Below the pieces are notes generated by a model, which did not search any database, was not told the DNA's origin, and worked only from the letters and a program-made list of their open reading frames with translations. This document shows positions 1,296 through 3,925 of a stretch of DNA of 36,675 nt, one piece after another. Numbering within the stretch: position 1 is the first letter of the stretch; each line of letters starts with the position of its first letter. The DNA is from an uncultured Gammaproteobacteria bacterium (GTDB lineage Bacteria; Patescibacteriota; Patescibacteriia; Patescibacteriales; UBA12465). The DNA is taken from NCBI GenBank assembly GCA_964416495.1, contig CAYQEI010000001.1, forward strand, positions 1-36,675. The letters run 5' to 3'. The position numbers and the translations under genes are program-made.

Positions 1296-1375
1296 ATTTT
1301 ATTAAATTTGTTCATTAAAAAAAATTATTATTAATTAAAAAAAGTCCTACGAGTAAAGTAGTAGGCAATTAAGTA

Positions 1376-1657
1376 ATGAAAGAAAAAATAGCTTTATTAT
1401 TGTTATTATTTGTGACTACAGTTTGTAGTGCGCAAATAAAATTAGAAGCCAATGGTGATGGTGATTATCGAGTAGAAGAGAAGGAATGGAGGTCATCGGA
1501 AATAACTGCTGAGCCCGATGCTCTTCAATATCTTGAAAGATTTTCACAGGCTATCGAAAGCCCTGGAACTCCAATCTTGGTAGGAAAGGAGATAGAAATT
1601 TTAAGATTAAAACCAGTATTTAAAATACTGGTGGAGGCCGACATAAATATTGTATAA
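1376..1657 (+). CDS. Small secreted hypothetical protein
   Basis: 93-aa ORF with an N-terminal signal-peptide-like segment (MKEKIALLLLLFVTTVCSA|Q). No family recognised. Confidence 0.45.
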   Translation: MKEKIALLLLLFVTTVCSAQIKLEANGDGDYRVEEKEWRSSEITAEPDALQYLERFSQAIESPGTPILVGKEIEILRLKPVFKILVEADINIV

Positions 1658-1670
1658 TATTGTGTTTAGA

Positions 1671-1716
1671 AAGTCAACATTGATAGTTTGACTTTTGGGC
1701 ATAGATTGTATATAAT
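1671..1716 (+). promoter_or_regulatory. Near-consensus promoter with an inverted-repeat operator candidate, upstream of the TA pair
   Basis: TTGACT (1688-1693), 17-nt spacer, TATAAT (1711-1716). A perfect 7-bp inverted repeat AAGTCAA (1671-1677) / TTGACTT (1688-1694) with a 10-nt spacer overlaps the -35 element. Confidence 0.55.
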
Positions 1717-1743
1717 AGCTGTGTAAATAATAACAATATCAAT

Positions 1744-2433
1744 ATGGCTAACCAATACTACAAATTAATAAAAAAACTGCGGATTGAGAGAGGTTTATCT
1801 CAAGCTATTATTGCTAAAAAAATTGGAGTTGGGAGGAATACTTATATTTCTTTTGAACAGGGTAAATCAGAATTGAAGTTATCAGAAATTATTAAATTAT
1901 CTGATAATTTGGGTATCTCATTGGAAGAAATAAAAAGTGGATTTAAACCAAACTATCCCAAATATAAACAAATGATCTTAGCCTTTTTAAGATCTAAAGA
2001 AGGCGTTGGTGGTAAAATCACTAAAACAAAATTAGCCAAATTATTATATTTAGCGGATTTTACTTGGTTTTATAAAAAATTGGAAAGCATGAGTGGCCTT
2101 TCATATCGCAAAATACAATTTGGTCCGGTTCCTGATTACTATTTTAGGGCCATAGATGAGTTATTTAAGGAAGGTGTTATCGATATTGATAATAAAACTA
2201 AGGATGGTGTCTTTTTAATTTATCAAACTAGATCTGGTGGATATAAAAAACTAACGGATTTAGATATTCCTGAGAAAAAATTAATCAAGGATATATCTTT
2301 AAGATGGAAAGATAAAAGAACGCAGGATATTGTAAATTTCACCCATAACCAGCTACCTTACCTTATCTGTGGTGATAACGAAATTATCCCCTATAGCTTA
2401 ATTACTCAAGAAGACCCAGGACATGTCTACTAA
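1744..2433 (+). CDS. XRE-family HTH fused to a Panacea/SocA (DUF4065) antitoxin domain
   Basis: The N-terminus (RIERGLSQAIIAKKIGVGRNTYISFEQGK) is a Cro/C1-type HTH. The central segment (KTKLAKLLYLADFTWF...YRKIQFGPVPDYY) matches the DUF4065 signature as I remember it (KLxKLLY.aD ... GPV). Confidence 0.75.
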   Translation: MANQYYKLIKKLRIERGLSQAIIAKKIGVGRNTYISFEQGKSELKLSEIIKLSDNLGISLEEIKSGFKPNYPKYKQMILAFLRSKEGVGGKITKTKLAKLLYLADFTWFYKKLESMSGLSYRKIQFGPVPDYYFRAIDELFKEGVIDIDNKTKDGVFLIYQTRSGGYKKLTDLDIPEKKLIKDISLRWKDKRTQDIVNFTHNQLPYLICGDNEIIPYSLITQEDPGHVY

Positions 2434-2821
2434 TTATTGCGTTGTTATCGAAAAATATGCCGAGAAGTATTATATTAAAAGTTTTAGTAAAAAATATCGT
2501 AAAGCTTGGGATGTTACAATGGAGGCTTTAAAAAGGGAGCTACAGAGTTTTGAAGTACTTTTACTTAAAAGTATCGCTAAAGTAATAGTTGAAAATGAAG
2601 AATTCAGGATATCTAAAGTTGAGTTTAAAGTCGCTGGCACGAATAAGTCTCGACACGGATCTGGAAATCGCTGTATCGTAGCCGTTGATAATAAAAATAA
2701 TGTTGCTAAAATACTTTTACTTTACCACAAGAGTCATCTCGGAGGTGGCAATGAAACTACTAAGTGGAAACAAATGGTAAAAGAAAACTACTCAGAATAT
2801 AAAAATGTATTTACTCTTTGA
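2423..2821 (+). CDS. Putative toxin partner, RelE/HigB (Gp49-like) fold candidate
   Basis: 132-aa ORF overlapping the antitoxin gene by 11 nt. SRHGSGNRCIVAVDNKNNVAKILLLYHKS resembles the G-G-x-R-v-I-y ... v-l-L-x-x-Y-x-K-s core of HigB/RelE-type toxins. The N-terminal AEKYYIKSFSKKYRK resembles the usual Aekdlkkl opening. Confidence 0.5.
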   Translation: MSTNYCVVIEKYAEKYYIKSFSKKYRKAWDVTMEALKRELQSFEVLLLKSIAKVIVENEEFRISKVEFKVAGTNKSRHGSGNRCIVAVDNKNNVAKILLLYHKSHLGGGNETTKWKQMVKENYSEYKNVFTL

Positions 2822-2960
2822 TTCATTTAAAATTTTATGTTATTTTAGAGGTGTAATTAGTAAATGAATATATGGCTAGATACAATAAACAAAGTTATAA
2901 AAATGATAACGAAGAAAGAGTGGGGGGCCTCATTTCTGGCTTGCTTGTTTTTTTCTAGTT

Positions 2961-3733
2961 ATGCTGTTTATCTCTTATACTGTTAGCATAAAAGCTCTTC
3001 TTACCACCTTAGCCGTAGAAATAGGAATAGTATTATTTACTGCATTGTTAATAAGTGCCTCTAAAAGGAAGAAAGAGAGAGTTAAGAAAGAGAAGGTAGA
3101 AAACATATTAGATGCTATTCATCAAGCTGGGCTTGAGGAATATATTAATAACTTTATAACTCGTTTCGGGCTTGGCCAGGAAAAATCTAAAAACGTTTGG
3201 GTCCGAAGAAATTATAAAATCAGTTGGGATAGGATAAATGACCTTAAAGATTTTCTATATCAAAAAGGGATTAATTTTTCTTCTTCAGAAATTGGTATTC
3301 TGTTAGCTAACTATATTGATAAGAGGGAGTTTGACCTGACAGTCAACACCATTAGCACTAATACTAGTAATTTTTCAAAGTTAAGTGGAACTGATTTTGA
3401 GCATTTATTGTATCGGCTTTATGAAGCGATGGACTATTCTGTCTTAGCTAGCGGTAGGGTAGGTGATTAGGGAGGAGACTTAGTGGCTACTAAGGGTAAT
3501 GAGAGGATCTTAATCCAAGCAAAATGTTATCGAAATCAGAGTGTTGGTAATAGCGCTGTTCAAGAAGCTGTTTCTGCTAAAAACCACTACGACTGCAGCA
3601 AGGCTGTAGTTATAACAACCAGTTTTTTACTAAAGAAGCAATAGAGTTAGCGAAGACTAACAAAGTAGAGTTGATTCCTAAAGATTTACTCCAAACAATG
3701 CTTTTAGATAATTTAAAAGAAAGTTGGAATTAA
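2961..3733 (+). pseudogene. Membrane-anchored Mrr-like (Mrr_cat) restriction endonuclease, disrupted
   Basis: GTDFEHLLYRLYEAMDYSV..GRVGD*GGDLVATKGNERILIQAKCYRNQSVGNSAVQEAV...AVVITTS matches the Mrr_cat D...QxK core. There is an in-frame TAG at 3468-3470. Restoring the C-terminus (FFTKEAIELAKTNKVELIPKDLL...SWN*, ending 3733) requires one extra T in the T6 run at about 3622-3627. Confidence 0.75.
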
Positions 3734-3925
3734 AGACTTGTTAACTTAAGATAAACTGCTTAGCAAATAAGATCTTAACCCCTAAATTACAGAGTTTACT
3801 TGTATTTTATAGAAAATATTGACTAAATTAGCTCTAGATTAATAAACTTGGCCTTAAGTGCCTTATTTTTTATCTTTAAAACATAGCTTAACTCGGCGTG
3901 TTTCCATTATAATTCAAGTTAAACA

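Follow-up and report, generated by a model that had tools for sequence, protein, structure and literature searches.

A Panacea antitoxin gene paired with a RelE/HigB2-like toxin gene: a probable PanAT cassette in Patescibacteria

We analysed a two-gene cassette, panA-panT, in a 36,675-nucleotide (nt) stretch of DNA (contig CAYQEI010000001.1, positions 1 to 36,675; hereafter "the window", meaning that whole stretch) from an uncultured bacterium that GTDB places in the Patescibacteriota. The cassette is very probably a type II toxin-antitoxin system of the PanAT kind, in which PanA, a Panacea-domain antitoxin, is paired with PanT, a RelE/HigB2-like toxin, under an autoregulated promoter with two operator-like boxes. 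The domains, the fold, the conservation of catalytic positions, the strict pairing of the two genes with their overlap, the conservation of the promoter and its boxes, and the variable genomic context were all computed, and from these we infer toxicity, neutralisation, RNA cleavage, DNA binding, and a trigger that would release the toxin. The cassette is widespread in ultra-small Patescibacteria: in a survey of one genome per GTDB species, relatives of PanT were encoded in at least 124 species-level genomes.

Gene layout, pairing, and genomic context

The two genes, with the domains and residues they encode, are laid out in the window as follows (HTH, helix-turn-helix; aa, amino acids; ORF, open reading frame):

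1744-2433, + strand: panA, 229 aa, stop codon TAA, from ORF translation
1768-1932, + strand: HTH_3 domain of PanA, residues 9-63, Pfam score 47 bits against a cut-off of 23
2032-2355, + strand: SocA_Panacea/DUF4065 domain (PF13274) of PanA, residues 97-204, Pfam score 41.7 bits against a cut-off of 25.7
2368-2430, + strand: conserved C-terminal tail of PanA, residues 209-229, of lower model confidence, from the AlphaFold model and the orthologue alignment
2423-2433, + strand: 11-nt overlap ATGTCTACTAA, which places the panT start codon within the last codons of panA; the two genes are predicted to be translationally coupled
2423-2821, + strand: panT, 132 aa, stop codon TGA, from ORF translation
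2615-2617, 2669-2671, 2723-2725, and 2729-2731, + strand: predicted active-site codons of panT for K65, R83, Y101, and K103, respectively

An earlier note on this DNA, made from its letters and a list of its ORFs, had read the 229-aa protein as a Cro/C1-type HTH joined to a DUF4065 segment expected at residues ~75-200. Pfam bore this out, with HTH_3 and PF13274 both above the curated gathering cut-offs by which matches of PanA were judged and with the Panacea domain at residues 97-204. The protein motifs quoted in that note are present in both ORFs (KTKLAKLLYLADF and QFGPVP in the 229-aa protein, GSGNRCIVAV...ILLLYHKS in the 132-aa protein), as is the stop/start overlap of 11 nt at 2423-2433, and what the note described of the sequence proved correct throughout. 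Since panT starts 11 nt ahead of the panA stop codon, the two genes are probably translated in a coupled manner. The panT stop codon is TGA (2819-2821) in the window versus TAA or TAG in 69 of the 73 intact orthologues listed, and the window PanT is 2 residues longer than its 130-aa relatives; reading that UGA as glycine would add only 3 codons.

Of the loci in the at least 124 genomes with a relative, the 80 best were retained, and pairing was scored on the 78 of these that had upstream DNA, the other 2 starting inside the toxin gene. The earlier note had proposed a survey of the neighbourhoods of homologues of the 132-aa protein, and its outcome was uniform, with a PanA of the HTH-Panacea form encoded directly upstream and on the same strand in 78/78 loci (77 full-length and 1 cut by a contig end). 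Overlaps make up 69 of the 75 panA/panT junctions scored (49 of 11 nt, 19 of 14 nt, and 1 of 4 nt), and at the other 6 a gap of 2-3 nt separates the genes. Distant members of the PanT family include one from a Coriobacteriales-labelled genome that has an HTH-PanA with the same 11-nt overlap, and another whose HTH-PanA partner overlaps it by 26 nt. Two variants among the distant relatives (L092 1707-2905; L090 2023-2932) comprise a divergently transcribed HTH-Panacea gene, which lies 165 nt from the toxin and adjoins an N6/N4 methyltransferase, and a Panacea-only antitoxin of 165 aa without the HTH. The divergence of PanA and that of PanT are correlated (r = 0.70), and their mean pairwise identities, 0.60 for PanA versus 0.59 for PanT, rule out an antitoxin much better conserved than its toxin.

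The DNA around the pair varies from locus to locus. Clustering of the ORFs that flank the 80 loci gave no family present in more than 5 of them, and the 138 immediate neighbours scanned with Pfam and PADLOC were diverse, with translation factors and tRNA synthetases among them as well as type I restriction-modification, DpnI, and RhuM genes; neither the clustering nor the scans yielded a consistent third partner gene, and a tRNA scan of 60 loci revealed no systematic association with tRNA genes. A conserved 3' boundary beyond the cassette was considered and rejected, as similarity among loci ends at the toxin stop codon. Such unconserved flanks are what would be expected for a mobile toxin-antitoxin cassette. 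Searches of mobile elements and viruses with PanT gave no homologue among plasmids (PLSDB) or phages (INPHARED) by tblastn and nothing at E <= 0.001 in a BFVD fold search. Two loci (L032 3944-4393; L045 4001-4399) have the toxin ORF split in two beside a full-length panA, i.e., decay that takes the toxin first. Together, the strict pairing, variable flanks, split toxins, and correlated divergence point to an autonomous, horizontally moving two-gene toxin-antitoxin cassette.

Reduced genomes have been hypothesised to lack toxin-antitoxin systems (PMC12455944), and the earlier note had considered a module of this kind unusual for such a genome. That expectation did not hold, given the number of species-level genomes that carry the cassette and the HigAB, AbiE, and YafQ toxin-antitoxin systems that have been reported in Patescibacteria (PMC13059738).

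Predicted structures of PanA and PanT

PF13274 is recorded, in precomputed annotation, on all 120 listed PanA orthologues, some of which are named by NCBI as [quoted passage not shown] or as DUF4065 antitoxins. Against the NCBIfam equivalog model SocA_antitoxin (NF047745), PanA scored 12.7 bits with a cut-off of 190, so that it is a Panacea protein and not a SocA orthologue. Its AlphaFold model, with a predicted local distance difference test score (pLDDT) of 81.5, divides into an HTH of five helices (residues 5-65), a Panacea body that is also helical (71-208), and the tail (209-229), in which pLDDT drops to 66-74. Foldseek matches of PanA were restricted to the HTH and comprised HipB, restriction-modification controller proteins (C.AhdI), the 434 repressor, SinR, and P22 c2, with superposition on HipB, the controller proteins (C-proteins), and the 434 and P22 c2 repressors at a root-mean-square deviation of 1.0-2.1 A; further, PanA matched the PADLOC model "Control_protein" at E 7e-8, and the MqsA model reached E 0.13 only, over the HTH only. 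Across 41 orthologues, the invariant positions of the tail are E213, I214, I215, P216, L219, I220, T221, Q222, E223, P225, and Y229, the final residues of PanA being under extra constraint from the overlapping toxin start.

For PanT, a single-sequence search returned 315 related proteins, and an exhaustive profile search of 1.84 billion representatives resolved the family into 218 clusters at 50% identity, whose members are nearly all 125-145 aa long and, where named, nearly all from Patescibacteria metagenome-assembled genomes. A sequence search of the PDB with PanT gave no match. The AlphaFold model (pLDDT 91.9, predicted TM-score 0.87) starts with a beta strand and three alpha helices, continues with four beta strands, and ends in C-terminal helices, and when it was compared with the PDB by Foldseek the top 20 matches were all RelE, HigB2, YoeB, HigB, or YafQ toxins, as were most of the top 45. 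The best was an archaeal RelE (1wmi_A; E 2e-4, target TM-score 0.72); others included V. cholerae HigB2 (8a0x_D; E 1.4e-3), T. thermophilus and E. coli RelE, YoeB, HigB, and YafQ, and the first ParE stood at rank 45 with a probability of 0.41.

Profile comparisons also led to HigB2. A profile of 51 distant PanT members (27-59% identity) retrieved V. cholerae HigB-2 from the PDB (E 0.008), and hhalign of the PanT family against VcHigB2, with a HigB2 sequence verified to be identical to 5ja9_C, gave E 2.8e-5 and a probability of 74%. In both the profile search and hhalign, R83, Y101, and K103 of PanT align with the catalytic R64, Y82, and K84 of HigB2, whose replacement by alanine lowers activity 350-, 1200-, and 3000-fold, respectively (PMC5416850). 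These three are, with K65 and F68, the only internal positions of PanT that are invariant in the 51 distant relatives. In the model, beta-2 carries K65, beta-3 carries R83, and Y101 and K103 lie where beta-4 ends. K65 is on the active-site face of its strand, which it shares with K69 four residues further on, and is close to, though not precisely at, the position of HigB2 R51. The RelE/HigB-like character that the earlier note suggested for the partner is thus supported by the predicted fold and by conservation of the HigB2 catalytic residues, and PanT is a divergent HigB2/RelE-type protein that would most likely act as a ribosome-dependent mRNase. A YoeB-type acid-base pair, E67/H102, was also considered, and was rejected because both residues are conserved in close relatives only and not in the wider family; hhalign against YoeB was empty.

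Promoter, operator-like region, and surroundings of the cassette

Four features lie upstream of panA in the window:

1663-1679, + strand: operator-like box 1, TGTTTAGAAAGTCAACA (TGT-N11-ACA), upstream of the -35; conserved alignment block
1670-1695, no strand: inverted repeat with arms AAAGTCAA (1670-1677) and TTGACTTT (1688-1695), whose arms fall in the right portion of box 1 and the left portion of box 2
1685-1701, + strand: operator-like box 2, AGTTTGACTTTTGGGCA, over the -35, consensus TGTTTGACTTTTTTACA; conserved alignment block
1688-1716, + strand: sigma-70-type promoter, with -35 TTGACT at 1688-1693, a 17-nt spacer, and -10 TATAAT at 1711-1716; 11/12 positions

The promoter proposed in the earlier note, TTGACT-N17-TATAAT, was confirmed as the best promoter-like site within 1300-3100, with agreement at 11 of 12 positions. 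For the window and 76 loci (77 sequences in all), we aligned the 100-nt region that precedes panA. The homologous -35 reads TTGACT or TTGACA in 45 of them, 48 have TATACT or TATAAT as the -10, and in 67 the spacer measures 16-17 nt. Beyond about -75 the DNA is unconserved; then come the consensus aTGTcaAaatTatnaACAt, 4-5 nt, atGtTTGACtTtTttACA, ~8 nt, and taTATAcT. The resulting phylogenetic footprint, which consists of two 17-bp TGT-N11-ACA boxes with the -35 and the -10, exceeds chance, and the combined two-box pattern is found a single time in the window, where 0.03 occurrences would be expected. Box 1 has the form TGT-N11-ACA in 61/77 sequences, often with an internal palindrome TGTCAA-N5-TTGACA, and box 2 the form [A/T]GT-N11-ACA in 56/77, the spacer between them being 4-6 nt in every one of the 77.

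Where the earlier note had placed an operator for the HTH over the -35 in the form of a perfect 7-bp inverted repeat, part of that proposal stood. A conserved operator-like region does overlap the promoter, and the repeat (AAGTCAA-N10-TTGACTT at 1671-1694) is present, with pairing that extends to 8 bp per arm; the conserved element is, however, the two TGT-N11-ACA boxes and not the inverted repeat. The latter is perfect in the window alone among 74 homologous loci, with a typical match of 3/7 elsewhere, and by itself falls within chance, as 27 of 100 shuffled sequences contain one or more matches when up to 2 mismatches are allowed. The inverted repeat is a lineage-specific by-product, not a conserved element. 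In a covariation test, complementarity of the operator half-sites was no higher than column conservation predicts, and the test is hence uninformative. A second promoter-like site lies on the minus strand at 1649-1677 (TTGACT, 17 nt, TACAAT; 10/12 positions) and points away from panA; since it is built by the left arm of the inverted repeat and has no minus-strand gene downstream, it is probably a by-product of the palindrome.

PanA combines two features of an autorepressor, the HTH_3 domain and, as a conserved sequence over its own promoter, a dyad that is a candidate operator. Two adjacent dyads, one of them over the -35, are similar to the operator layout of HipB-type and controller-type XRE repressors, in agreement with the structural matches of the PanA HTH, and the candidate operator form TGT-N11-ACA resembles the operators of C-proteins. 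Only 6-9 nt separate the -10 from the panA ATG in 64/77 sequences, a spacing that predicts a leaderless panA mRNA; the panA mRNA is thus probably leaderless in most lineages. The window is among the exceptions, with a spacing of 27 nt, and it and 12 others have leaders of 19-37 nt without an evident Shine-Dalgarno sequence. Separately, a hairpin with a 4-6-bp stem and the loop TTCGACTAnn occurs upstream of box 1 in 9/77 sequences (L001, L009, L017, L040, L042, L050, L067, L073, and L080) and is absent from the window. It lies 95-117 nt upstream of the panA ATG, at a nearly constant distance from box 1, and the background rate is ~0.008 per 260 nt; it could mark a boundary of the cassette or serve as an insulator or terminator.

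The gene just 3' of the cassette, at 2961-3735 of the window, is a decayed Mrr-type restriction endonuclease gene. Its first ORF (2961-3470) encodes a transmembrane-like N-terminus and the start of Mrr_cat up to an in-frame TAG at 3468-3470, and a second piece (3483-3644; Mrr_cat, E 3.8e-10) is followed by a frameshift and a C-terminal remnant that reaches to ~3733. The truncated 169-aa Mrr ORF is called on independent assemblies too and is therefore not a sequencing error, and recoding of UGA as glycine is ruled out as the cause of the break, the in-frame stop being TAG. Over the whole window (1-36675), GC content is 36.7%, 32/32 ORFs of at least 120 aa lie on the + strand, and neither a tRNA gene nor an Rfam family at threshold was found; in at least one public assembly its start is also the end of a contig.

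Proposed mechanism, alternative explanations, and known systems

If the cassette is indeed a PanAT-kind system, the single sigma-70-type promoter would drive a bicistronic panA-panT mRNA on which translation of panT would be coupled to that of panA through the 11-nt overlap. Free PanT would enter the ribosomal A site and cleave the mRNA under translation, using a predicted active site of basic residues and a tyrosine (K65, R83, Y101, and K103), and growth arrest would follow. PanA would bind and neutralise PanT, possibly via its invariant C-terminal tail, and PanA dimers would repress the operon at the boxes at 1663-1679 and 1685-1701, the second of which lies over the -35.

Several observations weigh against this reading, most of them to do with the toxin. 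PanT matched no family in Pfam, NCBIfam, PADLOC, or PHROG, and the PF06296 family model does not match the window PanT and is touched by just 1 of the 51 distant relatives, at E 0.014. The hhalign probability for HigB2 is just 74% and the alignment covers the beta-sheet core alone, with EcRelE as a weak match and YoeB as none. The PanT counterpart of HigB2 R51 is uncertain: R51 aligns to K69, which is not conserved, and whether the invariant K65 is an exact equivalent is likewise uncertain. On the regulatory side, box 2 of the window reads AGT...GCA and departs from the consensus at both outer triplets, a deviation by which repression at this locus could be weaker, and neither panA nor panT has a clear Shine-Dalgarno sequence.

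The biological role could also be chiefly that of a phage-defence or abortive-infection switch, in which the Panacea domain would sense an infection or stress cue and free the RelE-like toxin; as a proposal about role, this does not conflict with a toxin-antitoxin mechanism, and we hold it to be a real if minor possibility. Ernits et al. 2023 lean towards a sensory function of Panacea in PanA proteins with several domains (PMC10440598). The patchy distribution and variable context of the cassette are in keeping with such a role, as are its neighbours: a decayed Mrr-type restriction gene here, and at several other loci genes of type I restriction-modification, DpnI, RhuM, or PD-(D/E)XK. However, only ~10 of the 138 immediate neighbours are defence-like and most are housekeeping or of unknown function, and PanT has neither a PADLOC match nor a homologue in PLSDB or INPHARED. 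Rather doubtful, in our estimation, is the broader picture of a Patescibacteria-specific, horizontally spread module in which Panacea would sense a phage or host-contact signal, the toxin would be a dormancy or abortive-infection switch suited to episymbiosis, and panA would be leaderless under two operators in most lineages.

Two other explanations concern PanT itself. That it poisons gyrase in the manner of ParE, or has some other non-RNase target, is suggested by the fact that fold alone cannot separate RelE from ParE (PMC10440598, PMC11980606), by the presence of Mycobacterium tuberculosis ParE2 among the Foldseek matches, and by a C-terminal helical extension (residues 111-131) in which E111 and T112 are invariant and W115 is near-invariant. 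Yet ParE appears only at rank 45, below many RelE, HigB, and YoeB matches, the residues aligned to HigB2 R64, Y82, and K84 are invariant, and a C-terminal helix is present in HigB2 too (PMC5416850), which leaves a ParE-type activity very improbable. Alternatively, PanT may be non-toxic, the pair being a duo of transcription factor and co-regulator or a domesticated toxin-antitoxin remnant that Patescibacteria keep for regulation, as might be thought from the good conservation of both proteins (0.60 and 0.59) across many lineages and the strong conservation of the promoter and operator. We consider this very improbable, because catalytic-type residues invariant over 51 distant relatives would be unexpected in a dead enzyme, and the variable context, patchy distribution, and two toxin-only pseudogenes fit a selfish toxic module.

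A toxin-antitoxin cassette of the PanAT kind remains the reading we prefer, and it can be set against several known systems. With V. cholerae HigBA2, whose toxin HigB-2 belongs to PF06296 "RelE" (PMC5416850), it shares the RelE-like fold, the C-terminal helix, and the aligned catalytic residues. In contrast, higBA2 has the toxin gene first and the window cassette the antitoxin gene first, HigA2 has a disordered N-terminus and a C-terminal HTH without a Panacea domain, and PanT is ~20 residues longer than HigB2, has an extra N-terminal helix, and falls below the PF06296 threshold. Of the hallmarks of the RelE/ParE superfamily, PanT accordingly has the predicted fold and a predicted active site of Arg (beta-3), Tyr and Lys (end of beta-4), and a basic residue on beta-2, and lacks the PF06296 match. 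The MqsR-type PanAT of Bartonella and B. fungorum, whose antitoxin joins a zinc-binding domain, an HTH, and Panacea, resembles the cassette in having a multidomain PanA with an HTH, autoregulating in that system, and a RelE-superfamily toxin, but neutralises through the zinc-binding domain (PMC10440598), which the window PanA does not have. To the XRE repressors (HipB, C-proteins, 434, and P22 c2) the cassette is linked by the superposed HTH, here accompanied by two adjacent dyad boxes, one over the -35. The type VI system SocAB of Caulobacter has the DUF4065/SocA domain in common with it, whereas PanT is RelE-fold and not SocB-like, and nothing points to a ClpXP-adaptor mechanism.

The closest comparison is with the Panacea antitoxins as defined by Kurata et al. 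2022, who found an N-terminal HTH in 343 PanAs; the partners in their list include MqsR-, ParE-, and PemK-like ones, and their Dataset S1 contains predicted toxin clusters with HHpred matches to HigB-2, RelE, and YoeB (PMC8832971). The cassette has both marks of PanAT systems, an antitoxin with PF13274 and a conserved two-gene neighbourhood with variable flanks. In cluster pT15/T14, whose representative matches HigB-2 by HHpred at 99.73%, the Saccharibacteria members (Ca. Saccharimonas aalborgensis and TM7 HOT_356) have an HTH-PanA, antitoxin-toxin order, and a distance of -11, and all T14 entries, with accessions that include WP_015641600.1 and WP_129619247.1, are marked "notest" (PMC8832971). 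The window pair is like T14 in its HTH-PanA, gene order, -11 overlap (as in the window and 49/75 loci), phylum, and likeness to HigB-2; it differs in that T14 also lists Pedobacter, Flexibacter, and Methanobrevibacter, whereas the toxin family of the window comes almost entirely from Patescibacteria metagenome-assembled genomes. A search for named or accessioned relatives of the window toxin returned only metagenome-derived "hypothetical proteins". From architecture, gene order, overlap, and phylum, we think there is a strong chance that the window toxin belongs to the same family as T14, and as that catalogue entry already pairs an HTH-PanA with a HigB-2-like partner at -11, the new PanT family envisaged by the earlier note is unlikely.

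To this entry our analysis adds a toxin family of 218 clusters at 50% identity without a Pfam model, four invariant predicted active-site residues, a fixed 11- or 14-nt overlap, a conserved two-box operator-like region with its promoter, and a probable leaderless panA mRNA in most lineages. It provides a clear, testable pair of a Panacea antitoxin and a RelE/HigB2-fold toxin in Patescibacteria, a phylum hypothesised to have largely lost such accessory systems, and leaves the general understanding of toxin-antitoxin systems unchanged. Set beside these known systems, the cassette is neither a new class nor an oddity for its phylum, and is a well-supported, fairly ordinary member of a kind already catalogued.

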